The position numbers and the translations under genes were made by a program. A model generated the notes under the pieces. The model saw only the letters and a list, made by a program, of their open reading frames with translations, searched no databases and was not told where the DNA came from. From the IMG/VR virus record IMGVR_UViG_3300027746_000697, positions 32,001-96,000 of that record: 64,000 nt of DNA; one strand, written 5' to 3'. Below, piece by piece: positions 29,449-46,853 of the stretch; positions within the stretch are counted from its first letter, which is position 1; the number at the start of each line of letters is the position of its first letter. This stretch comes from a virus.

Positions 29449-30164
29449 TGCGACATCTCTGATGTGGCTAGATTAATTCTAGTTTTAACCACACTCAGTT
29501 CTGTTGGTTCTGTTTTGAATCCAACAGACACATATCCGTCAAAGTCTCCAATCTCTGGAGGAATACCACCACGACAGATAAACGTGGCGCCTTGCTTGAC
29601 TTCCCATTCTGAAGTCTTGCCAGTAACTTCTAACTTATCGCATATAACTTCACCGTTGAGCATGCCAATGATTGCGGCATTACGTGCAGGATCTTTGCTG
29701 AACAAACTGGAAACTAATCCGTCTAATGTGTTATCTCTGCCTCTGGGGCCAAACGCCAACATAGTTACTCTGGTGTTGACAACTAGACTGGCTTTGTGTA
29801 CTACAACTGATACTGCTTCTAGATCTTTTTGTAGACTCACAGCAACTGGTATGAGATGATTTACTTCTTTGAGGTTGGTGATCTTACTGCTTTGGGTTAT
29901 GGCATTTAGGATAACTGTTCTGCTGTCCCAAGCAAAATAACCAAAGAAGAACACACTGGCCAACAGTATAACTTCAAACAGTTTAAATGGGCTATCAACC
30001 CATTTGATCAAATCTATTGCTTTGTCCAGCATTGATGATGCTGATTTGGTAGTGCTACTAACATCAATCACAATAGGAGAATTAGCGGCCTTCTTAACAG
30101 GCGCTTTCTTAACAGGCGCTTTCTTAACAGGCGCTTTCTTAGCAGGTGTTTTTTTGATGACCAT
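29445..30164 (-). CDS. membrane-anchored hypothetical protein with KKAPV repeats
   Basis: 15-nt tandem repeat at 30091-30135 encodes KKAPV; one TM. Confidence 0.65.
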   Translation of the reverse strand: MVIKKTPAKKAPVKKAPVKKAPVKKAANSPIVIDVSSTTKSASSMLDKAIDLIKWVDSPFKLFEVILLASVFFFGYFAWDSRTVILNAITQSSKITNLKEVNHLIPVAVSLQKDLEAVSVVVHKASLVVNTRVTMLAFGPRGRDNTLDGLVSSLFSKDPARNAAIIGMLNGEVICDKLEVTGKTSEWEVKQGATFICRGGIPPEIGDFDGYVSVGFKTEPTELSVVKTRINLATSEMSQ

Positions 30165-30202
30165 TGATTCGCTCCCAACTTATACTACTGTTTTGATAAT
30201 GG

Positions 30203-30580
30203 TTACTTCTTCCCACCATTGTTACTTTGTTTCTCTTTGAACTTTTCCAACTCTTGCACACGCCATACTAGAGTGTCTAACACTGCTTTGTTGGCACCGC
30301 TTCTTGATAGTGCTTCTGTGTTAGCCTGCATGAAGTCTTGGCGCAGTTTTTCACGAACCAGTTCAGCACCCATGTTCGGTGCTTGTTTGTTGTCTGATGT
30401 CACCACCAACTGCATCTTGCCTTCAAGAATGGTCAACTGTGTATGAACCGCACTCAGCGCATTCATCAAGTACACCACACAGGCAAACATGATGGGCAAT
30501 ACTGCAAATGTTACCTTTTCAATCAGCGCACCTTTGGCTTCGCCAGCACTCATCTTTTCTTTGATTTGTTCCAATTCCAT
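30203..30580 (-). CDS. hypothetical membrane protein
   Basis: AAGGAG RBS; one TM. Confidence 0.6.
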   Translation of the reverse strand: MELEQIKEKMSAGEAKGALIEKVTFAVLPIMFACVVYLMNALSAVHTQLTILEGKMQLVVTSDNKQAPNMGAELVREKLRQDFMQANTEALSRSGANKAVLDTLVWRVQELEKFKEKQSNNGGKK

Positions 30581-30741
30581 GGTTTTCGCTCCTTTTGGAT
30601 TGTTTGTTCGCGGATTTGCTACTGAAAAATCGATTCGCTCCCGACTTGTTCCTTCAATAATATTTAGCTTTTAAAGCACCAATTCTCTTGCTATACTAAA
30701 TACAAGGCACTATAATAGTGTTTTAATAGGAAAATAAGTAA

Positions 30742-30945
30742 ATGGCAACAGGTAAAGTAAAATGGTTTAATGAAACCAAAGGTTTTGGGTTTATTACTCC
30801 AGACAACGGCGGTGAGGATTTATTTGCTCACTACTCAGCGATTCAGACATCAGGATTCAAAGTTCTGCAAGAGAATCAATCAGTAAGTTTTGACGTAGTA
30901 CAGGGTCAAAAAGGCTTGCAAGCCGCAAATATTCAACCGCAGTAA
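30742..30945 (+). CDS. cold-shock protein (CspA family)
   Basis: [15 protein letters not shown] (RNP1), LFAHYSAI (RNP2). Confidence 0.95.
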
Positions 30946-30967
30946 TTAGGATAATACGGAGAGCATC

Positions 30968-31033
30968 ATGGCCCAGAAGAAAAGAACACCAATGGAACGT
31001 GCGGCTCGCCGTGCTACCAAAAAGAAACGTTGA
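30968..31033 (+). CDS. 21-aa basic peptide
   Basis: GGAGAG RBS; MAQKKRTPMERAARRATKKKR. Confidence 0.45.
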   Translation: MAQKKRTPMERAARRATKKKR

Positions 31034-31041
31034 TTTAAAAA

Positions 31042-31435
31042 TTGTTGTAATCCCTTCAAAACGAAGGCATGTTGGACGAGGGTTCGATTCCCTCCATCTC
31101 CACCAAAAAGGTTTTTAATGGATCAGTGGGACGAGTACTTTCCTCCTTTGAATTTATGGAACTATAGCCTACATTGGCAATGGTTCAATGATCCAATAGA
31201 AGAAGAAAATCTTTCTGATGGGGATGACCAGGTTTCGACAGCGTGAGATAGTAGAGACGGCAACACGATAGGCGATGGACGTAATCCAAGCAAAAACCGT
31301 AAATGCAAACGCAAATACATTTGAGTATTTCAAAGTTCCAGCTTCAGTAGCTTTTTCAGCTAATGATGCAGACTTTGCAATGGTAGCCTAAGAAACTACA
31401 ACTCCGGGGCTGGTTAGCCTTGTAAACCAATAACC
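31042..31435 (+). ncRNA. ssrA: tmRNA, circularly permuted two-piece form
   Basis: T-arm and 3' acceptor strand GAGGG-TTCGATT-CCCTC-CATCTCC-A-CCA (ends 31105) precede 5' strand GGGGATG (31220) with G3:U70; tag frame 31305-31391 ANANTFEYFKVPASVAFSANDADFAMVA*. Confidence 0.88.
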
Positions 31436-31464
31436 AAAAAAGGCACTTTCGAGTGCCTTTTTTC
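31436..31464 (+). terminator. intrinsic terminator after tmRNA
   Basis: AAAAAAGGCACT-TTCG-AGTGCCTTTTTT. Confidence 0.85.
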
Positions 31465-31534
31465 TTGACCTCATGCAATATAGAATATATACTAGTCTTA
31501 GTGACTGACGTCATTATATTAAAAGGAATTAATT

Positions 31535-31987
31535 ATGAAAAAATTAGCAATCGCATCAATGTTGGCCTTGGCCGCATTTTCAGCAAGTGCTGTAGAAGTT
31601 GGCGTTAATGGTAGTTATGATTTTGGCGGTGCAAATGACCGTCCAGGCGCTGGTATTACCATTGGACAGAAATATAACAAATTTGGAATCACTGCTGGCT
31701 TTGATCGTTACACCAAAGGTACTGATCAAAACAAGTGGAACCTAATGGGTTCATATGATGTTGCTACTGTGGCTGGTGCTACTGTTGCAGTCAAAGCTGG
31801 TGCAATGTATATTGACAACACTGGCAGAGTAGCAGACGGCTATGCCGCATTGGTTGGTGCTGGCGTAAGCTACCCACTTAGCAAAACTGTTGCCTTAACT
31901 GCTGATTATCGTTATCAAGCAGGTCAATCGCGTGTAAACACATTTGACGGTAGCACTGTTTTATTTGGTGGCAAGTACTCGTTCTAA
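31535..31987 (+). CDS. outer membrane beta-barrel protein (OmpA/Ail/Lom-like)
   Basis: Signal peptide ASA, alternating beta strands, GAGVSY, C-terminal YSF. Confidence 0.8.
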   Translation: MKKLAIASMLALAAFSASAVEVGVNGSYDFGGANDRPGAGITIGQKYNKFGITAGFDRYTKGTDQNKWNLMGSYDVATVAGATVAVKAGAMYIDNTGRVADGYAALVGAGVSYPLSKTVALTADYRYQAGQSRVNTFDGSTVLFGGKYSF

Positions 31988-32002
31988 TTTAAAAATTAGA
32001 TT

Positions 32003-32028
32003 AAAAAAGGACCTTCGGGTCCTTTTTT
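32003..32028 (+). terminator. intrinsic terminator
   Basis: AAAAAAGGACC-TTCG-GGTCCTTTTTT. Confidence 0.85.
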
Positions 32029-32031
32029 ATT

Positions 32032-32080
32032 ATTAAAAAAATCAATAAGCATTATAGAAATAATTATTGCAAAAATCTAT
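32032..32080 (+). promoter_or_regulatory. OxyR-like operator upstream of rubrerythrin
   Basis: ATTA-N7-CAAT-N7-ATAG-N7-TATT plus ATTG-N7-CTAT abutting TTGACC. Confidence 0.5.
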
Positions 32081-32133
32081 TGACCCACAGGTGTAATAGG
32101 CTATATACTAGTACAAACACACAAGGAGACACT

Positions 32134-32583
32134 ATGTCAATAACATTGAAAAATTTGGAGTCAGCACTTGCTGGCGAGTCTATGGCTCACATCAAGTATC
32201 GTTACTTTGCAAAGATCGCTCGCGAAGAAGGCTTCGAGGATGTTGCAAAACATTTTGAGCACACAGCAGATCAAGAAATTCTACACGCATGGGGCCATTT
32301 GGAACTGCTAGTCGGTAAGCCAACAACCCGCGAGTGCTTGGAGAAAGCTATCGAAGGTGAAACATATGAGTTTACTACAATGTATCCAGAGTTTGAACGA
32401 AATGCCCGTGCCAGCCACAATCATCAAGTTGAACAAGAAATGCAAGGACAAATTGTCGAAAGCAAAGAACACGCAGAAGCATTTAAAGCTGTGTTGGCCA
32501 AGGCAGAAAAACGTTTTTCGGCTTTGAAGCGAGTTGAAGAGCGTCATGCCAATGCTTACAAACAAGTTTTGGAGACACTATAA
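32134..32583 (+). CDS. rubrerythrin
   Basis: NLESALAGESMA..KY.YFA.IAREEG, QEILHA, AIEGETYEFTTMYP, VEERHA; RBS AAGGAG. Confidence 0.92.
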   Translation: MSITLKNLESALAGESMAHIKYRYFAKIAREEGFEDVAKHFEHTADQEILHAWGHLELLVGKPTTRECLEKAIEGETYEFTTMYPEFERNARASHNHQVEQEMQGQIVESKEHAEAFKAVLAKAEKRFSALKRVEERHANAYKQVLETL

Positions 32584-32717
32584 TGGAACACGTATGTATT
32601 GTATGTGGACATGTCCACGATGAAGAGATAGAAGGCCAATGGGAAACATTGCCTAACGAATTCGTCTGTCCAGAATGCGGTGTAGGTAAAGAAGACTACA
32701 TAGAAGTATTATTCTAA
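32583..32717 (+). CDS. rubredoxin
   Basis: CIVCG...WETLPNEFVCPECGVGKEDY; below ORF-track cutoff. Confidence 0.9.
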   Translation: MEHVCIVCGHVHDEEIEGQWETLPNEFVCPECGVGKEDYIEVLF

Positions 32718-32755
32718 ATAAAATGTGTTAAAAAGGCCATATTACCAATATGGTC

Positions 32756-32784
32756 TTGACACAAAGACTAAATAACTATATAAT
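32756..32784 (+). promoter_or_regulatory. sigma70-type promoter P1 of tRNA island
   Basis: TTGACA-17 nt-TATAAT, with a TAAATA motif inside the spacer. Confidence 0.85.
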
Positions 32785-32849
32785 AAGAACATGCACAAGC
32801 AACTGCCTGTGTAAGGTGTTGTAGAAATACAACAAAGAAAGATTTCAAA

Positions 32850-32930
32850 AGTGGTTGACTATGATGCTGAAAGGCATTATAATCAACCACTGAGTGGTTG
32901 ACTATGATGCTGAAAGGCATTATAATCAAC
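32850..32930 (+). repeat. exact 38-bp direct repeat, each copy a sigma70 promoter (P2, P3)
   Basis: AGTGGTTGACTATGATGCTGAAAGGCATTATAATCAAC at 32850-32887 and 32893-32930; TTGACT-17-TATAAT. Confidence 0.85.
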
Positions 32931-32984
32931 ACAAGACACTAGCATTCCGCTAGTAAATTTTAAGAGAGTAAACGAGAACACAAA

Positions 32985-33134
32985 ATGCAATCTTGCAATA
33001 GACATCAACAATTTAATACGATGCCCAAACAGGTAGGCGTTATAGCCTCTTATTGGTTGTCGATTAATGCGGGAAGTCTATCATCATTAGATCGCACACC
33101 AGAGATTCGCAGGGTCCGGGAGACCGTAGTGTAA
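32985..33134 (+). CDS. putative attenuator leader peptide (49 aa, all 20 amino acids)
   Basis: MQSCNRHQQFNTMPKQVGVIASYWLSINAGSLSSLDRTPEIRRVRETVV*; 3' end overlaps the antiterminator. Confidence 0.6.
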   Translation: MQSCNRHQQFNTMPKQVGVIASYWLSINAGSLSSLDRTPEIRRVRETVV

Positions 33135-33198
33135 AGTAAAACATACACCGCAAACTTCAAGGACCCTAGGATTAAAAACCCTGGGGTTTTTTGTTTTT
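33111..33198 (+). terminator. attenuator: mutually exclusive antiterminator and intrinsic terminator
   Basis: Terminator AAGGACCCTAGG/CCTGGGGTTTTT plus U tract (33159-33198); AGGGTCC (33111-33117) is the exact complement of its 5' arm GGACCCT. Confidence 0.7.
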
Positions 33199-33337
33199 AG
33201 ACGCTGAGATTGCCAAGGCAGTCGTTGAAGCAAAGTGTGGAGATACCAGTAACGAGGACTGGGCTAGGCACTATAAACATCTAGCAAACGGGCGGCCTGT
33301 AGGATGAAGCACTTCTTCTAGTGTGAAAAATTACAGC

Positions 33338-33405
33338 GTATTAAAGCATATTCCAAAACTAGAATGTTTAGGGGATAAGGCCACAAGCCGAGTATGCTTT
33401 AATAC
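33338..33405 (+). repeat. TAAAGCAYA-type inverted-repeat cassette A
   Basis: GTATTAAAGCATATTC / GAGTATGCTTTAATAC 16-bp stem. Confidence 0.6.
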
Positions 33406-33470
33406 ACACTCTTCACCTCCGCTTTGAACGCGGTTGACATCATAGAGGGAGAGTGTTACAATTAAAGTAT

Positions 33471-33556
33471 GGAGTAGAAGCATCAATGGTGATGCAGTGG
33501 ACTGTAAATCCGCCGTCGTAATGGCACGCCTGGTTCGATCCCAGGATACTCCACCA
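33471..33556 (+). tRNA. tRNA-Tyr(GTA)
   Basis: Cloverleaf, GTGGA-CTGTAAA-TCCGC, long variable arm, CCA. Confidence 0.9.
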
Positions 33557-33562
33557 AGTTTA

Positions 33563-33637
33563 GGTCTGTTCGTATAGAGGTTATTACTGTGGATTGTCTA
33601 TCCACTTACGGGGGTTCGATTCCCCCACAGACCGCCA
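33563..33637 (+). tRNA. tRNA-Asp(GTC)
   Basis: GTGGA-TTGTCTA-TCCAC; CCA. Confidence 0.88.
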
Positions 33638-33644
33638 ATTTTAT

Positions 33645-33720
33645 TCCGCAGTAGCTCAGTTGGTAGAGTAGATGACTGTTAATCATTTGGTCCCTGGTTC
33701 GAGCCCAGGCTGTGGAGCCA
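33645..33720 (+). tRNA. tRNA-Asn(GTT)
   Basis: GATGA-CTGTTAA-TCATT; CCA. Confidence 0.93.
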
Positions 33721-33779
33721 ATAAAGTAATCAAATATACTAGTTTGTCAATAAATATTGAAATATTTAAGGATTAGTGT

Positions 33780-34526
33780 ATGCTTGATTACGAATGGATG
33801 TTTTATTTTTATTTAATAATATGGTTTATATCTTGCAGTGTTTATGCAATTTACATTCACAGAGCACATGCTCATGGATCAATTACTGTAAGTTCAAACT
33901 TTAGTTATTTTGCTAGAACGTGGTTATGGTACATAGGATTTTGGTATCCTGGTGATTCTGTTCGTTCATTTGTAGCCGGACATAGAAAGCATCATGCTAC
34001 TTCTGATACCGTTGATGACCCGCATAGTCCATTGTATTATAGCAAACAAGAACTGTTCTTTACACAAAAACCGAGTCCAACTAGTCCAGCGTATTATTTA
34101 ACACCTGATGAAATTGAAAAATGGGCATCGGATGTGCCTATATACACGGATTGGTTAGAACACCAATTTGCAAAATATTCTAACTATAGATATCCAGTTG
34201 GCGGAATTTTAGTGTTAATAATGTTTGGAGTTTGGGGACCAGTTGTTGGGTGTTTCCTGTTATTTTTTATACAGATACTCCTTCGGTCACATAATTATCT
34301 AAGTCATACAATAGGTTATCGAAATAGACCAGCAAAAGGTGCTGATCGTTCTCGAAATATATTTCCAATAGGACTGTTGTTTTTTGGAGAAGAACTTGCG
34401 GCAAACCATCATGATGATACCACTAAAGCAAAATTTTCAGAAAAATGGTGGGAATTTGATCTTACATGGGGAATTATCGTGATTTTGAAATTTTTTGGTC
34501 TAGTTAAATTAAACTCTACCAAATAA
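33780..34526 (+). CDS. second fatty acid desaturase-like protein
   Basis: HRAHAH, HRKHH..SDT..DPHSP, GEEL..NHH, WWEFD. Confidence 0.85.
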   Translation: MLDYEWMFYFYLIIWFISCSVYAIYIHRAHAHGSITVSSNFSYFARTWLWYIGFWYPGDSVRSFVAGHRKHHATSDTVDDPHSPLYYSKQELFFTQKPSPTSPAYYLTPDEIEKWASDVPIYTDWLEHQFAKYSNYRYPVGGILVLIMFGVWGPVVGCFLLFFIQILLRSHNYLSHTIGYRNRPAKGADRSRNIFPIGLLFFGEELAANHHDDTTKAKFSEKWWEFDLTWGIIVILKFFGLVKLNSTK

Positions 34527-34534
34527 TATAATAC

Positions 34535-34610
34535 GGGGGTGTAGCTCATTTGGGAGAGCGCCTGCTTTGCAAGCAGGATGTAGCAAGTTCGATCCTTGTC
34601 ACCTCCACCA
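34535..34610 (+). tRNA. tRNA-Ala(TGC)
   Basis: CCTGC-TTTGCAA-GCAGG; G3:U70; CCA. Confidence 0.93.
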
Positions 34611-34615
34611 ATTTT

Positions 34616-34689
34616 CCTCTTGTAGTTAAATGGTATAACAGTCGGCTGATAACCGGCCATTACAAGTTCGATTCTTGTCGAGAGGACCA
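34616..34689 (+). tRNA. tRNA-Ile(GAT)
   Basis: GTCGG-CTGATAA-CCGGC; CCA. Confidence 0.9.
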
Positions 34690-34693
34690 AGTT

Positions 34694-34755
34694 TAGGATA
34701 GCAACAGCAAATTTAAAAACTCTTTTATTGAAAAAAAGCCAAAAATGCTATCCTG
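34694..34755 (+). ncRNA. CAGCA-module RNA copy 1
   Basis: TAGGATAGCA-ACAGCAA...AAAAA-TGCTATCCTG closing stem. Confidence 0.65.
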
Positions 34756-34763
34756 TTTTATAC

Positions 34764-34838
34764 ACTGTCGTCGTCTAGTGGCTAGGACGCTACCCTTTCA
34801 AGGTGGAGAAGCGAGATCGATACTCGTCGACAGTACCA
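34764..34838 (+). tRNA. tRNA-Glu(TTC)
   Basis: CTACC-CTTTCAA-GGTGG; T-loop ATCGATA; CCA. Confidence 0.88.
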
Positions 34839-34845
34839 ATTTTAT

Positions 34846-34923
34846 CTCTGTGTAATGTCAATCTGGTAGACGGCCTGATCTGGAGTCATGAGGATGTACG
34901 TTCGAATCGTACCATGGAGACCA
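34846..34923 (+). tRNA. tRNA-Pro(TGG), atypical anticodon loop
   Basis: CCTGA-TCTGGAG-TCATG (C33, A37); canonical T-arm; CCA. Confidence 0.7.
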
Positions 34924-34928
34924 ATTTT

Positions 34929-35002
34929 GCCCTTTTAGTATAATGGTATTACACCTGTTTTGTAATCAGGTTACGGCAGTTCGATTCTGTCATAGGGCAC
35001 CA
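34929..35002 (+). tRNA. tRNA-Thr(TGT)
   Basis: CCTGT-TTTGTAA-TCAGG; CCA. Confidence 0.85.
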
Positions 35003-35006
35003 AGTT

Positions 35007-35063
35007 TAGGATGCGAACAGCAAATTCAAAAATTCAACTTTTAATTGAAAAATAAGCATCCTG
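35007..35063 (+). ncRNA. CAGCA-module RNA copy 2 (Lys-UUU anticodon-arm mimic)
   Basis: TAGGATGC-GAACAGCAA...TTCAA-CTTTTAA-TTGAA...GCATCCTG. Confidence 0.65.
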
Positions 35064-35082
35064 TTTTATAAAAGGAAATCTA

Positions 35083-35211
35083 ATGGCACACAAGCAACAA
35101 GGTATTCTAACACGCAGTCCCCAATGGTGGAAACATCTTAAGGATTGGAAACGAGTGTTCTGGAAATCAGAACGCCAAGCACAAAAACGAAATATCAACA
35201 AAGGAGAATGA
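35083..35211 (+). CDS. small basic hypothetical protein (42 aa)
   Basis: AAAGGA RBS; MAHKQQGILTRSPQWWKHLKDWKRVFWKSERQAQK... Confidence 0.6.
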   Translation: MAHKQQGILTRSPQWWKHLKDWKRVFWKSERQAQKRNINKGE

Positions 35212-35293
35212 CATGAAACGTGCTAAACGTTAGTGTCATCTTTGACCCCGTATGGTCTTAGATGGCACGTAAAAGAAAATATTTACGATCCAT

Positions 35294-35368
35294 CCACGCT
35301 AAACTTTAGTGGCGAAGTACCCGGCTCTTAACCGGACTAACTGAGTTCGATTCTCAGAGCGTGGACCA
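35294..35368 (+). tRNA. tRNA-Lys(CTT)
   Basis: CCCGG-CTCTTAA-CCGGA; CCA. Confidence 0.85.
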
Positions 35369-35371
35369 TAT

Positions 35372-35446
35372 GGGGGTATAATTCAAAGGCTAGAATAGCC
35401 GGCTTTTAACCGGTCTATCAGGGTTCGAGTCCCTGTGCCCCTACCA
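35372..35446 (+). tRNA. tRNA-Lys(TTT)
   Basis: GCCGG-CTTTTAA-CCGGT; CCA. Confidence 0.9.
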
Positions 35447-35547
35447 TATAAAAACACATTACGGCGTAGGTCCAGAGATAACTTCATACTCGGCCGTAGC
35501 AGGATACAGAAGCAGACCTAAACCTGTTGTATAGTGTGGTTCTATAT

Positions 35548-35622
35548 GGTAACGTAGCATAACGGTCGTGCACCTCCTTCATACGGAGCAAGGTGTGAGT
35601 TCAAATCTCACCGTTACCACCA
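35548..35622 (+). tRNA. tRNA-Met or Ile2 (CAT)
   Basis: CCTCC-TTCATAC-GGAGC; CCA. Confidence 0.85.
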
Positions 35623-35660
35623 AACACAAAAATAAATATTCCACAACAGAGGATATGTGT

Positions 35661-36272
35661 ATGGGTGTACATGGATATTTTTCAACACCAATTTATGATA
35701 GTATGCTTGTGGGCGATGAATTAATTGCTGTACAAGCGGAGTTGGATCAAGTGGTTGCAGATTTGAAAGCAAAAGATTCATTTCAACATAATGAGTCTTG
35801 GTTACCAAACACACATAAATTATCCGACACAACTTTTGCGCAGAATTTATTATTAGATTACAACACTAAACATTTTGTAGATGCTTTGAAATTTCATGTT
35901 TTTGAATATGTAAAAATTTTAGATGTGCCTAAAAATAAAGTTGAGCAATTCAGCATTAGACAGTCTTGGATGACCAACACCGGAAAACACGAGTTTGCAC
36001 ATACACACAATCATGGAAGTGTTGATATTGCAGGCGTGTATTACTACAAAACAAGTGGTAAAGATGGTAATATAAATTTCATGACTCCAGTTTCACAGTT
36101 TTCAACATATCTATTAGAACATCTCCCAAACAACATATCTTACGAGCCTAAAGTTGGCAAGTTCATTTTGTTTCCAGGTTGGATAGATCACGGCGTTCCT
36201 GCAAATTACACAGATGATGAACGCATTAGTATTTCGTTTAATATAAATTTTAAACGTCCAGAATTTTCATAA
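35661..36272 (+). CDS. 2OG-Fe(II) oxygenase (TIGR02466-like)
   Basis: SWM...HTHNH...AGVYY...ILFPGWIDHGV...RISISFN; AGAGGA RBS; the ORF-track start overlaps a tRNA. Confidence 0.85.
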   Translation: MGVHGYFSTPIYDSMLVGDELIAVQAELDQVVADLKAKDSFQHNESWLPNTHKLSDTTFAQNLLLDYNTKHFVDALKFHVFEYVKILDVPKNKVEQFSIRQSWMTNTGKHEFAHTHNHGSVDIAGVYYYKTSGKDGNINFMTPVSQFSTYLLEHLPNNISYEPKVGKFILFPGWIDHGVPANYTDDERISISFNINFKRPEFS

Positions 36273-36274
36273 GA

Positions 36275-36519
36275 TGTTAGTAAAAGACTCAAGGTGTTCG
36301 GAAGTTTCGAAAGAGAAGATATAAAAGGTCGGAAGCCTTTAATATTTGGCAGTTATAAATTGCACTTCAGCCGGGCGGTGGATCAGGGCATACAGTCTGG
36401 GAGATCCTCAAAGGCAAATGACGCTCCATGTTTGCTAGACAAGTAGAGCGCGACTGTATGCCGCGGGTAGCCAAGTTTTCCTTGACAGGGACCAAAACTC
36501 TCAGAGTCTTTTACTAACA
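36275..36519 (+). ncRNA. candidate ~245-nt structured RNA
   Basis: Perfect 16-bp closing stem TGTTAGTAAAAGACTC/GAGTCTTTTACTAACA; internal 11-bp GGCATACAGTC/GACTGTATGCC. Confidence 0.6.
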
Positions 36520-36526
36520 CTTTTAT

Positions 36527-36601
36527 GCAGGATTAATTCAGTGGTAGAATGTCTCGTTGCCAACGAGAATGTCAGGAGTTCGACCCTCCTATCCTGCTCC
36601 A
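36527..36601 (+). tRNA. tRNA-Gly(GCC)
   Basis: TCTCG-TTGCCAA-CGAGA; TCCA end. Confidence 0.9.
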
Positions 36602-36652
36602 TAATATGGCTCCCAGACTTGTTCACATAGTGTCCTCTGGGAGTTTTCTTTT

Positions 36653-36715
36653 TAGGATAGCAACAGCAAACATTAAAAATCTTTTCTTGAAAAAAAGCCA
36701 AAAAATGCTATCCTG
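36653..36715 (+). ncRNA. CAGCA-module RNA copy 3 (Ser-UGA anticodon-loop mimic)
   Basis: Near-identical to copy 1; CTTTT-CTTGAAA-AAAAG. Confidence 0.65.
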
Positions 36716-36724
36716 TTTTATTGT

Positions 36725-36800
36725 TGGGGTGTCGCCTAGTGGCCTAAGGCAACGGTCTTTGAAATCGTCATCATGAGTTCGAATCTCATCTCCCCTGCCA
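36725..36800 (+). tRNA. tRNA-Gln(TTG)
   Basis: ACGGT-CTTTGAA-ATCGT; GCCA end. Confidence 0.85.
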
Positions 36801-36806
36801 AATTAT

Positions 36807-36882
36807 ATCCCTGTGGTGAAATAGGAAATCATCAAACCCTGCGAAGGTTTAGTCTCAGGTTCAACTCCTGATGGGGATGCCA
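36807..36882 (+). tRNA. tRNA-Arg(GCG)
   Basis: AAACC-CTGCGAA-GGTTT; GCCA end. Confidence 0.82.
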
Positions 36883-36888
36883 ATCTAT

Positions 36889-36964
36889 GGTGTCTTTAGT
36901 GTAGTGGCCTGCACCCTGCTCTGTGAAAGCGGTAGTACCGGATCGATACCGGTAAGGCACCCCA
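36889..36964 (+). tRNA. tRNA-His(GTG)
   Basis: G-1:C73; CTGCT-CTGTGAA-AGCGG. Confidence 0.88.
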
Positions 36965-36973
36965 ATTTTTAAT

Positions 36974-37065
36974 GCCAGCGAGACTTGACAGTCAGAGAGG
37001 TTTTATAAACCTTTTAGCGCCAGATTAGCGTTCTTGAGAGGGTTTGATTCCCTCCGCTGGTACCA
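36974..37065 (+). tRNA. atypical tRNA with TAT anticodon (Ile-UAU), long variable arm and minimal D-arm
   Basis: GCCAGCG/CGCTGGT-ACCA; GAGGT-TTTATAA-ACCTT; variable arm AGCGC..GCGTT; T-arm GAGGG-TTTGATT-CCCTC. Confidence 0.7.
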
Positions 37066-37067
37066 AT

Positions 37068-37141
37068 GCTCTTATAGTTAAATGGAAGAACGCCTCTTTG
37101 GTATGGAGGTAATGAAAGTTCGATTCTTTCTGAGAGCACCA
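37068..37141 (+). tRNA. tRNA-Thr(GGT)
   Basis: CCTCT-TTGGTAT-GGAGG; CCA. Confidence 0.85.
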
Positions 37142-37146
37142 AACAT

Positions 37147-37222
37147 GCTACTTTAGCTGATGTGGTCATAGCGGCGGTCTGAAGAACCGTTGAAAGAGGT
37201 TCGATTCCTCTAGGTAGCACCA
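37147..37222 (+). tRNA. tRNA-Phe(GAA)
   Basis: GCGGT-CTGAAGA-ACCGT; CCA. Confidence 0.88.
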
Positions 37223-37228
37223 CTCAAT

Positions 37229-37305
37229 GCCCCAGTGGCGCAATTGGTAGACGCGGCTCTCTCAAAAGGAGTGTGTTCCCCGTTCGAGTCGGGGCTGGGG
37301 TACCA
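37229..37305 (+). tRNA. tRNA-Leu(CAA), short variable region
   Basis: GCTCT-CTCAAAA-GGAGT; 77 nt; CCA. Confidence 0.85.
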
Positions 37306-37323
37306 TATTATTAGGAGATTGAT

Positions 37324-37530
37324 ATGAAAGCAGTTACATTTAAAAATCGTATGAACAATGAACAATTTCTATGTGATGACGTTCGAACTGTTCAGCATAT
37401 TGATGGAGTAGAATATTTACTTGTGCATAAGTTAGCACAAGATAGAAAATTTCTAATGCGTAAAGATGCATTAGAGAAAGTTAATACCGCTGTCGTTCAA
37501 CGGAGAGGACAACACTCTTCTAAAGTGTGA
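37324..37530 (+). CDS. hypothetical protein overlapping tRNA-Arg(TCT)
   Basis: AGGAG RBS; IDGVEYLLV motif; last 45 nt lie inside the tRNA. Confidence 0.6.
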   Translation: MKAVTFKNRMNNEQFLCDDVRTVQHIDGVEYLLVHKLAQDRKFLMRKDALEKVNTAVVQRRGQHSSKV

Positions 37531-37560
37531 ATGAGGGTTCGACTCCTTCCAGCGGTGCCA
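37486..37560 (+). tRNA. tRNA-Arg(TCT)
   Basis: ACACT-CTTCTAA-AGTGT; GCCA end. Confidence 0.88.
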
Positions 37561-37567
37561 AGAATTA

Positions 37568-37642
37568 CGGCCATTGGTGAAATGGATATCATCTCTGTCT
37601 TCGAAACAGAGGGTGTGGGTTCGATTCCTGCATGGCCGGCCA
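37568..37642 (+). tRNA. tRNA-Arg(TCG)
   Basis: TCTGT-CTTCGAA-ACAGA; GCCA end. Confidence 0.88.
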
Positions 37643-37709
37643 TTTAACGGTTGACAACTATAGTAATTGGCAATACAATTAAGTCATGTTTAACCAATGA
37701 AAGAAAAAC

Positions 37710-38264
37710 ATGAATCATTTACGTACTAGATATAAAGCTGATTGGTACGATAAAAAGATCGAACAGAATAAGGTAATTCAGGACGATCTTATTAGTATTA
37801 TTAACAAGTATAAGGAACCTAATTTTCCTTGGTCAGAAGATATGCTGAGATATCTCGAGAATGAAAACTTACTCGAAATTGCCATACCTACAGTTAACAA
37901 AGGTATTAGTGTAGTGTTAGGGGAAGGTATGGATTTTGATAATCATGGGGATGCTAAACTATCAATCGCAAGATTTCATTCAGGCGGTTCTAGTTACGCA
38001 TCTGGCATTAAATGTAAGTATAAGGAATTTATATTAGCATACGTATATGAACCTATACAAAAGAAATCGTATTATTTTGCCTTTCCAAAAAAGTATAACG
38101 AACATACTATTCCGTTTGATAAAAACACAGGTGCACCAAAGCGTAATAATTATATGTGGGACTACGAATGTTCCACGTTTGAAGAAATGGCAAACTACAA
38201 TATAGGATTAGGACTAGTTGAACAAATACCTAAAAATACATTTGACAATTTCTTTTTTGCATAG
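37710..38264 (+). CDS. hypothetical protein (possible nuclease-like insertion)
   Basis: Own sigma70-like promoter (TTGACA..TACAAT, 37651-37679); possible D...DAK motif. Confidence 0.55.
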   Translation: MNHLRTRYKADWYDKKIEQNKVIQDDLISIINKYKEPNFPWSEDMLRYLENENLLEIAIPTVNKGISVVLGEGMDFDNHGDAKLSIARFHSGGSSYASGIKCKYKEFILAYVYEPIQKKSYYFAFPKKYNEHTIPFDKNTGAPKRNNYMWDYECSTFEEMANYNIGLGLVEQIPKNTFDNFFFA

Positions 38265-38321
38265 TATAATAGTCATATACTAAGCAATTAGTGTTGTTCT
38301 TTAAAAATTTAAATCAAATAT

Positions 38322-38396
38322 GGAGCCATCGTCTATCGGTTAGGACATCTGGTTTTCATCCAGGCAAGCGGGGTTCGATTCCCCGTGGCTCTTCCA
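38322..38396 (+). tRNA. tRNA-Glu(TTC), second copy
   Basis: TCTGG-TTTTCAT-CCAGG; CCA; promoter TTGACA..TATAAT at 38242-38270. Confidence 0.88.
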
Positions 38397-38524
38397 TATA
38401 CGTGCTCTTTGAGTAGCTACAGTGGAACACCGAGAAACTTGCCAATGTCGACCAAAGCAAGGACCGGCCATGAAGAGAAGGGCTACCGTGGATTCAAGCG
38501 CCGCAGAGAGCACCTATATGGAAT

Positions 38525-38598
38525 ATATAAAAGCACACTAAGCAACACCCAACTGACTGGGATAGTAAGATGGCATTGCCCTTAGTGTGTTTTTATAT
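38525..38598 (+). repeat. TAAAGCAYA-type inverted-repeat cassette C
   Basis: ATATAAAAGCACACTAAG / CTTAGTGTGTTTTTATAT. Confidence 0.6.
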
Positions 38599-38675
38599 GC
38601 CCCGGTGGTGAAATTGGTAAACACAGCGGTCTTAGAAGCCGTAAGCTGAGAGTTCGAGTCTCTCCCAGGGCACCA
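38599..38675 (+). tRNA. tRNA-Leu(TAG), short variable region
   Basis: GCGGT-CTTAGAA-GCCGT; 77 nt; CCA. Confidence 0.85.
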
Positions 38676-38680
38676 AATTA

Positions 38681-38770
38681 GGAAGCGTGGCAGAGTCCGG
38701 CTTATTGCAACAGTCTTGAAAACTGTCGGCTCGAAAGGGTCCGTGAGTTCAAATCTCACCGCTTCCGCCA
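38681..38770 (+). tRNA. tRNA-Ser(TGA)
   Basis: ACAGT-CTTGAAA-ACTGT; long variable arm; GCCA. Confidence 0.92.
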
Positions 38771-38783
38771 TAATAAATAGTGT

Positions 38784-39335
38784 ATGAAAAATACGTTCCA
38801 TCATAGATTAAATATCCCAGTTAAATTTACACCAGTGTTTTTAGAAGATGCTCCTGTAATTTCTAATTACGATACAAATTTAATTAATAAAGAATTTTTA
38901 AATTGGATAGAATCTCTAAATTTAGAAATTAGCGGTTCGGAGTTATTCCATTTAAAACCAAATAATGATAAGAATCCAGATAGTTTACCAATTCATCTAG
39001 ATACTGGTGGATTTGATAATCATATTAAATTAAATTTTGTATACTGTAACACGACATCTAAAATGAATTGGTTTACTTGCAACGATATAAGTAAATTACA
39101 AGTTTTAAAAACGCCCACTGATACAGAATATACTTTAGCAAACGCAGAAGATTGCGAGTTAGTGTACTCAGCACAAATAGGACAACCAAGTTTAGTTAAT
39201 GCTGGCATGTTACATAGTGTATCGCCTGTAGAGTCTGAAAGGTATTGTTTTTCGTTTACTTTAATAAAAGACGGCAATATAATTACTTGGGAACAAGCAG
39301 AAGAAATTTTTAAAGAATATGTATCCTTAGTGTAA
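38784..39335 (+). CDS. hypothetical protein, cupin/2OG-oxygenase-like
   Basis: PIHLD...LVNAGMLHSV...RYCFS. Confidence 0.65.
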   Translation: MKNTFHHRLNIPVKFTPVFLEDAPVISNYDTNLINKEFLNWIESLNLEISGSELFHLKPNNDKNPDSLPIHLDTGGFDNHIKLNFVYCNTTSKMNWFTCNDISKLQVLKTPTDTEYTLANAEDCELVYSAQIGQPSLVNAGMLHSVSPVESERYCFSFTLIKDGNIITWEQAEEIFKEYVSLV

Positions 39336-39394
39336 TGGCAGCATTACAGTCTCCAAAACTGTCGGTCGGGGTTCGAGTCCCTGAGGGTACGCCA
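39321..39394 (+). tRNA. tRNA-Trp(CCA)
   Basis: ACAGT-CTCCAAA-ACTGT; GCCA. Confidence 0.9.
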
Positions 39395-39400
39395 AATATT

Positions 39401-39485
39401 GCGACTGTGGTGAAATAGGTAGACACAAGAGACTTAAAATCTCTCGCTTTCGGGCGTGCCGGTTCGATTCCGGCCAGTCGCACCA
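39401..39485 (+). tRNA. tRNA-Leu(TAA)
   Basis: AGAGA-CTTAAAA-TCTCT; variable arm; CCA. Confidence 0.93.
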
Positions 39486-39511
39486 AGATATAGTAATAAG
39501 TAAAAGAACAA

Positions 39512-39601
39512 GGAATGGTCCCATAATGGTATTGGAGCGGATTGCTAATCCGTCGAGTGGTGAAAGCCGCTTTCTGAGTTCGAGTCTCAGTCATTCCGCC
39601 A
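39512..39601 (+). tRNA. tRNA-Ser(GCT)
   Basis: GCGGA-TTGCTAA-TCCGT; long variable arm; GCCA. Confidence 0.88.
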
Positions 39602-39621
39602 AGTTATATAAAAAGGAAAAT

Positions 39622-39852
39622 ATGTTAAAACCAAATAAGACATTCAAATTAAGTAAGACAACCAAACGTATGCTGTGTAGTATTACTAACACAGAACAAC
39701 GTAATCAGTACAAGCGAATGATGATCGATGCAGAACTTTGTGCGGCCATTGTTCCAAAGAGTATTAAATCGGATCGTGGTGCTCCACGTGGCAATGGTCC
39801 GACTGGATATCAAACTAACGATACTGGAACTGCCAGTACCAGCACCGCTTGA
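39622..39852 (+). CDS. hypothetical protein
   Basis: AAAGGA RBS; MLKPNKTFKLSKTTKRML...YKRMMIDAEL. Confidence 0.65.
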   Translation: MLKPNKTFKLSKTTKRMLCSITNTEQRNQYKRMMIDAELCAAIVPKSIKSDRGAPRGNGPTGYQTNDTGTASTSTA

Positions 39853-39870
39853 AATAAGTAATACAGTTTT

Positions 39871-39946
39871 GCCGCTTTAGCTCATTTGGTAGAGCAGCCG
39901 CCTTGTAAGCGGCAGGTGGTCAGTTCGAATCCGACAAGCGGCACCA
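39871..39946 (+). tRNA. tRNA-Thr(TGT), second copy
   Basis: GCCGC-CTTGTAA-GCGGC; CCA. Confidence 0.93.
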
Positions 39947-40145
39947 ACCCCCGGCTACACTTCTACGTTAAGGAAGTGCGTGATTGCAAATACGATAATT
40001 GCACGGTGCATTGGATCTACCGCAAGGCTCTCTTTAAGGGCGACTTGAGAAATCACAAAGGCAGGGACGTTTCCCGTCTAAATAGAAAAGAACGTGGACA
40101 GAGTAACCGCTCAGTCTAGGGCTCATGTGGTGTGAGTAGCTAGAC

Positions 40146-40332
40146 ACTTTATTAAAGCATACTTGAATCCCACATAGTGAACAGATCAGGTTTGGCATCC
40201 CGGGCAGTTGAACAATAGTTTGACAACGCCAAATACGCCATAGTATGTTTTAATAAAGTACATTTAACTGGTCTATAAGATCAGTAGTAAGGACAGGGCA
40301 CCAGCAGTAGCGAAAGCCATAAATGTGCTTTA
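40146..40332 (+). repeat. two abutting TAAAGCAYA-type inverted-repeat cassettes (D, E)
   Basis: ACTTTATTAAAGCATACT/AGTATGTTTTAATAAAGT (40146-40259) and TAAAGTACATTTA/TAAATGTGCTTTA (40254-40332). Confidence 0.6.
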
Positions 40333-40340
40333 CTCAACAT

Positions 40341-40414
40341 GCGGGATTAGTTTAATGGTAAAACAGCAGATTTCCAATCTTCGGTCGGGGGTTCGATTCC
40401 CCCATCCCGCTCCA
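40341..40414 (+). tRNA. tRNA-Gly(TCC)
   Basis: GCAGA-TTTCCAA-TCTTC; TCCA. Confidence 0.9.
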
Positions 40415-40428
40415 AACTAAGGAATAGT

Positions 40429-41022
40429 ATGAAGGTATATCACGAAGATTATCTTTACGGATTTGACTTAGAATCTATCAACAATGATAAACTAGTTGAA
40501 TTTTGTCTTGAAGTCGAGCAATTTTTATTACAACAGTTACCTCCAGTTGATCCTGGTTGGTACGGAAGTGTATCAAGTGCTCACAACATGTCATACAATC
40601 TTCTTACATTTCCAAACAAAGAATTAAACAAGTTATATCATTCTATAAAAGAAAACGTAATCCCGTTATTAGATGCGGATACTACTTATGTGATAAAAAG
40701 CTGGTTAAATGTTTATCGTGCAGGACAAAAAATTGATTGGCACGGCCACTGGGCTGAAGAAAGCAAAGTATGGCATGGATTTTATTGTGCCCAAGTTGGG
40801 GACAGTGCAACCTATTATAAGATTCCAGAAGTTAAAGAAGTCATAACTGTTACTAGTAATGAAGGTTTATTAGTAATTGGCAAGAGTGCAGGAGATAAAC
40901 ATCGTAGCTCTGATTGGCATGATAATGCAATGCCCAGAATCACACTAGCATTTGATATTATTCCTATAGAGTCTATCGATAATAAACTATCTGTAAATCA
41001 TTATTTGCCGTTTAAATTATGA
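40429..41022 (+). CDS. 2OG-Fe(II) oxygenase-like protein
   Basis: SWLNVY...WHGH...HGFY...HRS...RITLAFD. Confidence 0.75.
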   Translation: MKVYHEDYLYGFDLESINNDKLVEFCLEVEQFLLQQLPPVDPGWYGSVSSAHNMSYNLLTFPNKELNKLYHSIKENVIPLLDADTTYVIKSWLNVYRAGQKIDWHGHWAEESKVWHGFYCAQVGDSATYYKIPEVKEVITVTSNEGLLVIGKSAGDKHRSSDWHDNAMPRITLAFDIIPIESIDNKLSVNHYLPFKL

Positions 41023-41267
41023 TCGATTATATAACAACATTTTTTGCAATTTTTTTACTCGATATTGTTTACACATACTACTTAAGATGTGTACAATACA
41101 ATCAAGTATTAAAAGCCAGTGGATGGAGTGTAGCCTGTTATGTACTAGGTAGTATAGCAGTTATAAATTATACCACTAACCATTGGCTAATTATTCCTGC
41201 AATGGCAGGTGCCTTTTGCGGTACGTTTGTTGGAATGAAAATTAAAAAGAAACAATTCGGAGTGTAG
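41019..41267 (+). CDS. small membrane protein
   Basis: Three hydrophobic segments, GAFCGTFVG; stop lies inside tRNA-Pro. Confidence 0.65.
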   Translation: MIDYITTFFAIFLLDIVYTYYLRCVQYNQVLKASGWSVACYVLGSIAVINYTTNHWLIIPAMAGAFCGTFVGMKIKKKQFGV

Positions 41268-41334
41268 CACAGCCTGGTAGTGCGCCTGGTTTGGGACCAG
41301 GAGGTCCAAGGTTCGAATCCTTGTACTCCGACCA
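41258..41334 (+). tRNA. tRNA-Pro(TGG), canonical copy
   Basis: CCTGG-TTTGGGA-CCAGG; CCA. Confidence 0.93.
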
Positions 41335-41341
41335 TAGTTAT

Positions 41342-41417
41342 CGCGGGGAGGGTCCGGTCACCAGCGTGGTCTCATAAGCCATTGCCATCCTTGGTTCAAA
41401 TCCAAGCCCCGCAACCA
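41342..41417 (+). tRNA. tRNA-fMet-like (CAT)
   Basis: CGCGGGG/CCCCGCA-ACCA with C1:A72 mismatch; GTGGT-CTCATAA-GCCAT; atypical D-arm. Confidence 0.78.
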
Positions 41418-41422
41418 ATTAA

Positions 41423-41497
41423 CTCGCTATAGTACAATGGATAGTATAGGGGTTTCCTAAACCTTTGATCCAAGTTCGATTCTTGGTGGCGGGACCA
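41423..41497 (+). tRNA. tRNA-Arg(CCT)
   Basis: GGGGT-TTCCTAA-ACCTT; CCA. Confidence 0.88.
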
Positions 41498-41498
41498 A

Positions 41499-42080
41499 TT
41501 ATAATAAATTGTTAATTTTGTTGAATACAAGCACATTGTCAATTGGATCTAGATGATTTAAAGACCCTTGCTTGTTTTTAAATAGATGAGAAAATTTAAG
41601 CATATTGGGAAACTCGTATAACCCTTCCCAATCGATAACAGACACATGTATTACTTTATCATTCACCGGTGCTAGCGTATGCATCACCTTTTCGCAAAGT
41701 AAATGATGAATATATTTTGCATGTTCAAAGTCAAAATACTTTTCAAAATACTCAATCATAGGTTTTAAACTGCTATCCGCAAGAGAGTGTTTTTTGATAT
41801 CAGTATAGATTAAATCGCAATTTTTATGTAACGGATCGCTATAATGTATAGGATGATGTTCTATATGTATTCTATACGGGCTAGTATGTGCTACTACAAT
41901 CTTGTCAAAAGATAATAAGTCTACTGATTCTAATTGTTTTAACACTTTATATTCGCCACAGCCAGCTTGTGCTAAATTAGTAACATTGTGTATTTTAGAC
42001 AACATATTAGGCCAACCTTCTCCTTGATATTTTACAGTCCAGTCAGCCGCAAAACTATCACCACAAATTAACAAGTTCAT
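41499..42080 (-). CDS. SGNH/GDSL-like hydrolase
   Basis: ICGDSF, NLAQAGCG, C-terminal NH. Confidence 0.7.
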   Translation of the reverse strand: MNLLICGDSFAADWTVKYQGEGWPNMLSKIHNVTNLAQAGCGEYKVLKQLESVDLLSFDKIVVAHTSPYRIHIEHHPIHYSDPLHKNCDLIYTDIKKHSLADSSLKPMIEYFEKYFDFEHAKYIHHLLCEKVMHTLAPVNDKVIHVSVIDWEGLYEFPNMLKFSHLFKNKQGSLNHLDPIDNVLVFNKINNLL

Positions 42081-42748: not shown

Positions 42749-42790
42749 GAAATATTTATGGCAGGCTTATTTTAAAGGATAAGTATTTGA

Positions 42791-44689: not shown

Positions 44690-44692
44690 ATT

Positions 44693-46010: not shown

Positions 46011-46039
46011 TTGACATTACGACAACTTGCCTATATAAT
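46011..46039 (+). promoter_or_regulatory. sigma70-type promoter
   Basis: TTGACA-17 nt-TATAAT. Confidence 0.8.
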
Positions 46040-46059
46040 ACAACTTTAACGGAGCATAT

Positions 46060-46320: not shown

Positions 46321-46327
46321 TAACTTT

Positions 46328-46402: not shown

Positions 46403-46408
46403 AATAAT

Positions 46409-46485: not shown

Positions 46486-46488
46486 AAT

Positions 46489-46847: not shown

Positions 46848-46853
46848 TTAGTT

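Follow-up and report, generated by a model that had tools for sequence, protein, structure and literature searches.

In attenuators of the trpL and hisL type, complete translation of a short leader open reading frame (ORF) results in transcription termination, one to three amino acids are sensed through runs of their codons, and a 1:2 protector helix ends transcripts that are not translated. Here, we describe a candidate attenuator of unusual composition in a 64,000-nucleotide stretch of viral DNA (positions 32,001 to 96,000 of IMG/VR record IMGVR_UViG_3300027746_000697; hereafter, the window, with all positions counted from its first letter). The element, built around a 49-codon leader ORF, resembles trpL, hisL, leuL, thrL, ilvL, and pheL in that a short leader ORF is combined with mutually exclusive helices and an intrinsic terminator, and the position of the ribosome would decide between the helices. 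The distance from its stop codon to the end of the terminator (approximately 64 nucleotides [nt] in the window) is similar to that in the trp leader. Unlike the trpL-type leaders, the phage leader has no codon runs, includes all 20 amino acids, has no protector that we could find, and precedes tRNA genes rather than genes for biosynthetic enzymes. The pheM leader of pheST likewise places part of the translation machinery under an attenuator with a leader peptide; it differs from the phage leader, with its 20 amino acids and downstream tRNA genes, in that it senses Phe only and has a synthetase as its target. T-box riboswitches bind one uncharged tRNA directly, need no ORF, and control genes of the translation apparatus through terminator read-through. 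The phage element would share with them a read-through that is tied to the state of tRNA but uses an ORF and has no match in Rfam.

We consider the phage element, located at the head of a phage tRNA array, to be probably a transcription attenuator of the ribosome-mediated (leader-peptide) type, in which every amino acid is sampled. Comparison of related sequences demonstrates, at the level of sequence, which parts the element has and how they are arranged, that they are conserved and covary, that the element is tied to tRNA arrays, and that completeness of the amino acid set is under selection.

The sensing principle has an experimental precedent, by analogy, in the upstream ORF (uORF) of whiB7 (wblC) in mycobacteria and other Actinobacteria. 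In the whiB7 study, knock-down of genes tied to 18 of the 20 amino acids activates the switch; the uORF of M. smegmatis encodes 19 of the 20, the sensed set depends on uORF content, and removal of the Trp or His codons from this uORF weakened or abolished the starvation response for the amino acid concerned (PMC10274678). The claim of an earlier reading of the window from its letters alone (the sequence-only reading) that no such universal sensor had been described is too strong given that this uORF senses multiple amino acids. As in the phage element, a leader ORF of mixed composition is located before a terminator/antiterminator, and stalling caused by a lack of many different amino acids, tRNAs, or synthetases leads to read-through (PMC10274678). 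The two have no sequence relationship, and the whiB7 uORF is described there as enriched in Ala and variable in amino acid content, with the M. tuberculosis version missing several amino acids (PMC10274678). Moreover, whiB7 control concerns a drug-resistance transcription factor in a cell, whereas the phage element is followed by a tRNA array and has a conserved completeness (69 of 79 leaders), and Ala makes up 5.5% of the leader compared with 7.1% of the phage proteome. The phage element would work like the whiB7 family, and it is not a member of that family. The vmlR-type attenuators of B. subtilis also resemble it in having a small upstream ORF and a terminator, with ribosome slowing leading to read-through; they reportedly mediate a response to translation inhibitors, are induced by antibiotics, and control resistance factors (PMC9226507).

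A full-text literature search, in which the top-ranked results were judged by their listings or the openings of their abstracts, retrieved no account of leader peptides or attenuation upstream of tRNA genes in phages. To our knowledge, selection for amino acid completeness has not been described for vmlR-type attenuators. What is new here is the conserved completeness itself, the tRNA array as the target, and a jumbo-phage family as the owner. Why phages carry large sets of tRNAs and how their use is timed are long-standing questions. If our reading is correct, the element would represent the first described device for regulating the tRNA genes of phages and a rare case in which selection acts on what a sequence contains (one of everything) instead of on its order, and it would suggest that jumbo phages gauge the decoding capacity of the cell directly and adjust tRNA supply by feedback. 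If functional, the cassette of roughly 270 nt could also provide a compact live reporter of aminoacyl-tRNA shortage.

Composition and conservation of the leader ORF

The features of the element and its surroundings are given in Table 1. The sequence-only reading had described three sigma70 promoters followed by a 49-codon ORF that encodes all 20 amino acids with 38 distinct codons and in which Glu is the last amino acid to appear. Both descriptions are borne out: the promoters match the consensus at 11 or 12 of 12 positions, and the leader peptide contains 20 of 20 amino acids encoded by 38 distinct codons, with the first Glu, as taken from the peptide, at codon 40. No codon is found in runs; the 20 amino acids are spread across the 49 codons with approximately one to three occurrences each, and a run of codons for one regulating amino acid, the criterion for a trp/his-type leader, was not found in the leader.

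Table 1. Features of the leader element, the tRNA array, and the sequences between them in the window
Feature	Position	Strand	Description
Promoter 1	32756-32784	+	TTGACA-17-TATAAT, 12/12 matches
Promoter 2	32855-32883	+	TTGACT-17-TATAAT, 11/12 matches; in first copy of 38-nt repeat (32850-32887, repeat family D13)
Promoter 3	32898-32926	+	TTGACT-17-TATAAT, 11/12 matches; in second repeat copy (32893-32930)
5' hairpin of leader RNA	32938-32954	+	CUAGC-loop-GCUAG, predicted fold
Leader ORF	32985-33134	+	49 codons, ATG start, peptide MQSCNRHQQFNTMPKQVGVIASYWLSINAGSLSSLDRTPEIRRVRETVV
Antiterminator	33104-33173	+	Predicted long helix in three tiers, -25.1 kcal/mol; 5' strand formed by codons 40-49
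Intrinsic terminator	33162-33198	+	9-bp hairpin (33162-33188), -13.9 kcal/mol, followed by T6GT5
Spacer	33199-33433	+	Conserved non-coding stretches only; small ORF of relatives absent
Extra promoter	33434-33462	+	TTGACA-17-TACAAT, 11/12 matches, TG before -10; 8 nt before first tRNA
tRNA array	33471-46482	+	33 tRNA genes and one sub-threshold hit; few interspersed ORFs

With the amino acid composition of this phage, a 49-residue sequence has a 3.9% chance of containing all 20 amino acids, and 409 of the 12,742 sliding 49-residue segments in its long ORFs do so (3.2%). At least 38 distinct codons are expected by chance in 5.5% of cases if codons are uniform and in 0.1% with the codon usage of the phage; completeness and this codon number are expected jointly in 0.03-0.6%. 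Among the 86 ATG-initiated ORFs of 40-60 codons in the window, the leader is the only one with all 20 amino acids. The single copy in the window is suggestive, but taken alone it is weak evidence and not very unusual, so that the question of completeness has to be decided by the relatives.

Relatives were collected from viral contigs in two ways. A peptide-based scan gave 37 loci with 72-98% identity, and a search blind to the peptide, using a 17-nt motif of the 5' arm of the terminator, gave at least 120 stretches, of which 80 were kept as loci. The pooled set comprises at least 103 viral loci (individual loci are designated L followed by a number) with 79 unique leaders of 42-53 codons, the motif-found part being drawn from among the matches listed. 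For all counts, the start was assigned to the in-frame ATG farthest upstream that kept the ORF within 54 codons; an alternative rule, the shortest ORF of at least 36 codons, was dropped because it wrongly picked the internal Met13. A protein-database search contributed 44 further peptides to a pool of 72 unique ones. Conservation of the ORF, on which the sequence-only reading had staked its interpretation, is evident in both sets: all 37 peptide-found loci have an open ORF (cut by the contig end in L026), and in 78 of the 80 motif-found loci an ATG-initiated ORF ends 20-29 nt before the motif. The two loci without it are L134, a chance match with no terminator, and L195, which has just 89 nt of upstream DNA. 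Many of the motif-found peptides are only 12-35% identical to that of the window, and the overall range of leader identities extends down to 12-30%.

The sequence-only reading had proposed that completeness should be kept while the peptide drifts, and this is what the relatives display. All 20 amino acids are encoded by 69 of the 79 unique leaders, compared with 2.5 expected from the composition of the phage proteome and 3.0 from the pooled composition of the leaders; if the start of the longest ORF is used, 69 of 80 are complete. In the peptide-found loci, the figure is 36 of 37, the leader with 19 amino acids being that of L026, and in the protein-database pool it is 59 of 72. When residues identical to those of the window are held fixed and the remainder resampled, 9.1 complete leaders are expected against the 69 seen. 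Among the leaders with less than 50% identity, 32 of 41 are complete (simulation maximum of 12 in 200,000 runs), and leaders with 21-33% identity are still complete, which indicates that simple inheritance is not enough to explain the pattern. Single-linkage clustering at 50% identity yields 10 clusters, of which 7 consist mostly of complete leaders (binomial 1e-9); with the cutoff at 40%, almost all leaders fall into a single cluster, which provides no test. Shuffling within alignment columns (5000 shuffles) gives an expectation of 33.6 +/- 3.0 complete leaders of 71 with a maximum of 44, compared with 59 observed, and this excess arises because Tyr, His, and Cys are found at differing positions in different leaders rather than being lost. 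Based on these comparisons, we conclude that the presence of all 20 amino acids is a selected property of the leader sequences.

RNAalifold also predicts a long-range helix within the leader, between 32986-32993 in the start-codon region (UGCAAUCN) and 33089-33096 in codons 35-38 (NGAUCGCA), with one covarying pair (GU in 10 sequences, AU in 8, UA in 6, and broken in 2 of 26) in an alignment confined to close relatives. Such a helix could restrict translation to one round per transcript or serve as a pause signal.

Terminator, antiterminator, and the downstream tRNA array

The sequence AGGGTCC in codons 43-45 (33111-33117) is complementary to GGACCCT at 33161-33167. The predicted fold contains this pairing together with 33104-33108/33169-33173, GGAG/CTTC, and GTGTA/TACAC and places the stop codon (33132-33134) at the apex of the long helix, in agreement with what the sequence-only reading had recognized as a terminator preceded by an alternative helix. 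GGACCCT is common to the two structures, as part of the 3' strand of the antiterminator and of the 5' arm of the terminator, and the folds are therefore mutually exclusive. The terminator scan accepts loops of up to 8 nt; hence, it does not list the hairpin of the window, which has a 9-nt loop, and does list the version of L012 with an 8-nt loop.

The terminator is nearly invariant among the relatives (predicted energies of -13.9 to -16.2 kcal/mol). The 5' strand of the antiterminator was not part of the search motif, and its pairing is conserved as the sequence-only reading had anticipated for homologs: in 77 unique variants folded individually, base pairing between the GGACCCY of the terminator and the upstream strand is predicted in 76, and the antiterminator helix surrounds the stop codon in all 77. 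The antiterminator is the stronger of the two structures in 77 of 77 variants, with a mean of -27.6 kcal/mol (range of -33.7 to -20.4) compared with a mean of -15.0 kcal/mol for the terminator. The apical hairpin, which varies in sequence by lineage, always forms and always contains the stop codon. In these variants, the stop codon is located 15-28 nt past the outermost 5' partner of the helix and 25-34 nt ahead of GGACCC. With this geometry, a ribosome terminating at the stop codon would mask the 5' strand but would not extend to the terminator.

RNAalifold applied to a MAFFT alignment (A1) recovered the terminator and missed the antiterminator because the two classes of GGGTCC sequences are out of register in this alignment; for this reason, sequences were folded singly, and a second alignment of 76 sequences (A2) was used for counting pairs. 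Of the 532 cells that A2 provides for the seven base pairs of the lowest tier, 99.1% are paired. The one variable pair, between columns 25 and 97, is AU in 41 sequences, GC in 28, GU in 3, and another combination in 4, and the observed covariation was reached in 0 of 500 shuffles. In the terminator, the same T/C position faces a G, with which either base can pair; the matching A/G change in the upstream strand therefore speaks specifically for the antiterminator. Four RNA libraries contain assembled contigs over the leader, and two contigs extend across the terminator (33111-33337 and 33158-33407), but such contigs show no transcript ends and may stem from DNA carry-over, and we do not count them as evidence of expression or regulation.

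The array downstream of the element was originally read as 34 tRNA genes, and our count of 33 or 34 agrees. ARAGORN identifies 31 tRNAs, and Rfam adds two genes and one hit below its score threshold: a Tyr-like tRNA at 33471-33553 (anticodon read as GTA, long variable arm), which is the first in the array; a Cys tRNA at 46409-46482 (anticodon read as GCA), found by Rfam only; and the sub-threshold hit at 34847-34919, which has an odd anticodon arm. The array tRNAs cover all 20 amino acids. The association of the leader with tRNA arrays is conserved: in 35 of the 35 peptide-found loci with downstream DNA, an array on the same strand starts 423-771 nt after the leader ATG, and 59 of the 61 motif-found loci with at least 1200 nt of downstream sequence have a tRNA within 1200 nt of the motif, the exceptions being the chance match L134 and L160, in which the first tRNA is at 1231 nt. 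The order of the tRNAs is highly variable between loci; the leader stays at the head of the array.

The content of the leader and that of the array appear to be associated. In 24 loci with at least 5 kb of downstream sequence, no tRNA is present in the visible array for 5 of 7 residues that are absent from the leader, as compared with 64 of 449 residues that are present (Fisher p = 0.0011; contrary cases, Lys in L160 and Cys in L135), a result to be read with the small numbers, the truncation of arrays by locus ends, and the tRNAs missed by ARAGORN in mind. Selection for codon diversity beyond that of the amino acids was also considered as a property of the leader and is weak: given the peptide, synonymous diversity has a mean z of +0.71 relative to uniform choice.

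Proposed switch and alternative explanations

We propose the following mechanism. The strong tandem promoters would start a transcript carrying the 49-codon ORF, the last ten codons of which supply the 5' strand of the antiterminator helix, with the 5' arm of the terminator contained in its 3' strand. A ribosome that keeps pace with RNA polymerase would reach the stop codon at the apex and occupy the 5' strand, so that the terminator forms and transcription ends at about 33198. If the ribosome is delayed within approximately the first 39 codons by a scarce aminoacyl-tRNA, or if it was never loaded, the stronger and earlier-made antiterminator would form, and the polymerase would continue into the tRNA genes. 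Once fast decoding is restored, tRNA output would drop, amounting to negative feedback on tRNA supply. Because a stall anywhere within approximately the first 39 codons would act alike, the amino acids sensed would be those encoded there, and because every amino acid is present, a shortage of any decoding tRNA should raise tRNA output. We infer that the ORF is translated and that slow translation corresponds to read-through, and we likewise infer what the signal is during infection. We are cautious in extending this to defense: it is possible, if on balance doubtful, that the element is a counter-defense alarm, in which a host anticodon nuclease or another tRNA-depleting defense would cut any one tRNA species and so stall ribosomes on the matching leader codon, and the whole set of replacement tRNAs would be transcribed within seconds. 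A related and equally tentative reading is that of a closed loop, in which the tRNA products of the array themselves would switch the leader off again; the tendency of residues absent from a leader to have no tRNA in the visible array would fit this reading.

The amino acid that completes the set is usually located approximately 10 codons before the stop codon and is Glu in 43 of the 69 complete leaders. Unwinding by the ribosome extends roughly 8-10 nt beyond the A site, and it is plausible that a stall at the completing Glu codon would just spare the antiterminator helix.

Several observations weigh against the proposed attenuator. Ten of the 79 leaders are incomplete, with one or two residues absent (F in three leaders; C in two; W, D, V, and K in one each; and E together with Y in one), as are 13 of the 72 peptides of the protein-database pool (12 without Cys, one of these also without Leu, and one without His). 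The null models for completeness ignore the tree of the leaders, and shared ancestry is not fully corrected. When the last 8 codons are excluded, 59 of 79 leaders are complete, but only 11 of 79 are when the last 12 are excluded; as Glu completes the set so near the helix, whether it is sensed would hinge on precisely how far the ribosome reaches. The ORF of the window has a weak Shine-Dalgarno sequence (AAGAG/GAGAA type, with an A-rich stretch 5' of the ATG). For the window sequence, the fold of 32933-33136 does not strongly capture the 5' strand (z = -1.59), and because no protector comparable to the trp 1:2 helix was found, untranslated transcripts should read through, which would be a leaky default. 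The 22-nt sequence TTTAATACGATGCCCAAACAGG at 33012-33033 (codons for FNTMPKQ) is shared without change by 34 of the 37 relatives closest to the window, and the remaining three each have a single-base difference. This constancy includes synonymous sites and the rare codons ACG and CCC, and the attenuator gives no account of such invariance at the nucleotide level. No second or complementary copy of this stretch or of an 18-nt invariant stretch is present elsewhere in the window. The leader codons do not mirror the array, as had been claimed: the individual matches named for Leu, Arg, and Ile codons and anticodons are correct, but 42 of the 49 codons (43 with the Cys tRNA from Rfam) are readable by phage tRNAs, and at 86-88% this readability is no better than that of phage genes generally (87.6%). 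Finally, the promoter directly before the first tRNA of the window (33434-33462) implies that the switch is at least partly bypassed here, and in this phage it would add to tRNA transcription instead of being its sole control. No comparable promoter is located between the terminator and the first tRNA in L007, L025, or L036, and in L012, the fourth relative scanned, the only candidate promoter (10 of 12 matches) lies downstream of the first tRNA. The attenuator interpretation made from the letters alone is therefore supported in its core by the comparative evidence, but not with respect to codon mirroring or full gating of the array in this phage.

The alternative that survives best is an attenuator coupled to translation in general. 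It would report how available or how fast ribosomes are overall, for instance following host shut-off, rather than a shortage of individual tRNAs, and the presence of all 20 amino acids would have another cause, such as the avoidance of repeats or stall-prone runs. The structure alone would answer any delay, codon runs are absent from the leader, read-through would be expected of untranslated RNA, and vmlR-type attenuators reportedly answer general translation inhibition (PMC9226507). A pure speed gauge has no need of completeness, however, and completeness far exceeds expectation through deep divergence, with Tyr, His, and Cys shifting position rather than vanishing. We judge this explanation to be unlikely.

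Less probable still is the view that the promoters and terminator simply belong to an ordinary small gene, whose 49-residue peptide would act in trans while the long helix merely stabilizes the 3' end of the mRNA. This would fit the strong promoters, the open and conserved ORF, the terminator, and a conserved core of the peptide (W and DRTPE), and action in trans has been reported for some leader peptides (peTrpL; PMC7298713). Variation in the relatives, however, has no excess at third codon positions (entropies of 1.13, 1.07, and 1.20 bits at positions 1, 2, and 3); this lack of codon periodicity argues against a folded functional peptide, and the near-equal variation would fit a frame that is held open and complete better than it fits a folded protein. 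A compensated +2/+1 frameshift at GGGTCC (RRVRE vs. YPGSQE) alters C-terminal residues of the peptide while keeping the RNA string and regaining the same stop codon at the apex of the helix. Searches of Pfam and PHROGs returned nothing significant for the leader peptide. A fixed peptide function also leaves the position-independent retention of every amino acid unaccounted for, and it cannot account for mutually exclusive, covarying helices or the constant place before tRNA arrays.

That the locus functions as structured non-coding RNA, whether as a small RNA or as a signal for the processing of tRNA precursors, with an incidental ORF, is very improbable given a frame of 42-53 codons that remains open in 78 of the 80 motif-found loci even where identity falls to 12%. 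In the DNA alignment, leader indels are solely multiples of three, or they are compensated as at GGGTCC, and a scan of 30000-48000 with Rfam at E values of up to 1 found no family, including T-box, between 31563 and 33471. In its favor are the many nucleotide-invariant stretches, synonymous sites included, a predicted fold with z = -3.67, and the possible long-range helix between the start-codon region and codons 35-38 with its one covarying pair. Passive inheritance of an ancestral chance composition, for which the completeness of 3.9% of single 49-mers and the sharing of most residues among close relatives might be cited, is hardly credible in view of 69 complete leaders against 9.1 expected with shared residues fixed and of leaders still complete at 21-33% identity.

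Promoters, neighboring genes, and distribution

Promoters 2 and 3 are located in an exact 38-nt tandem repeat. The -10 hexamer of promoter 3 ends 58 nt 5' of the ATG, from which a 5' untranslated region of approximately 50 nt with a hairpin would follow; in the alignment, this hairpin is retained in relatives with changed stem sequences. One to three near-consensus promoters are present within 400 nt upstream in 74 of 76 unique leaders, and the -10 hexamer is 40-80 nt from the ATG in 55 unique leaders. In 16 of the 74 promoter-bearing leaders (e.g., L119, L123, L137, L151, and L155), the -10 hexamer ends 6-11 nt before the ATG, and the leader mRNA would be leaderless or nearly so.

In most relatives, the terminator is followed after 8-15 nt by an ORF of 48-63 residues with its own ribosome-binding site (e.g., L025:3225-3386 and L012:3223-3396). 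Its product is conserved and rich in Lys, Glu, and Arg, with no significant match in Pfam or PHROGs. Given its position, this ORF would be the first item under control of the switch in those relatives; it is absent from the window, L002, L011, L017, and L019. In some divergent relatives (L119, L124, L165, and L169), a GC-richer shared stretch (GTAGTA.GTGTGA.AGGGAACGCGA.CCTGC) follows the terminator instead of the small ORF and may be another structured RNA governed by the switch.

Four records of 266-400 kb each contain the element once, and CheckV rates three of these records as 95-100% complete; the 116-kb record from which the window is taken also has a single copy, and a fifth large record has no match to the stricter pattern used. 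Searches of 50,697 records of cultured phages by blastn in distant mode with 32700-33480 and by tblastn with the peptide gave no match in this collection, which may lack records very close to the window. In 185,579 species genomes of cellular organisms, the motif has 33 matches, of which one is a true member of the family (L263). This locus is on JBBAKF010000113.1, a 6.2-kb contig binned with a Polynucleobacter metagenome-assembled genome. The window also encodes a permuted (two-piece) transfer-messenger RNA (tmRNA) of the betaproteobacterial type at 31013-31482, 1.5 kb upstream of the leader, and ARAGORN detects a tmRNA 0.85-7.8 kb upstream in 5 peptide-found and 6 motif-found loci. Taken with the bin of L263 and the type of the tmRNA, the origin of the sequencing runs in lake water weakly hints at freshwater Betaproteobacteria as hosts. 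On their upstream side, the promoters adjoin two genes (32080-32717) that, by names read off the translations, encode a rubrerythrin-like protein of 167 residues and a rubredoxin-like protein of 44 residues with two CxxC pairs; a scan with the rubrerythrin-like protein matched at least 599 viral stretches.

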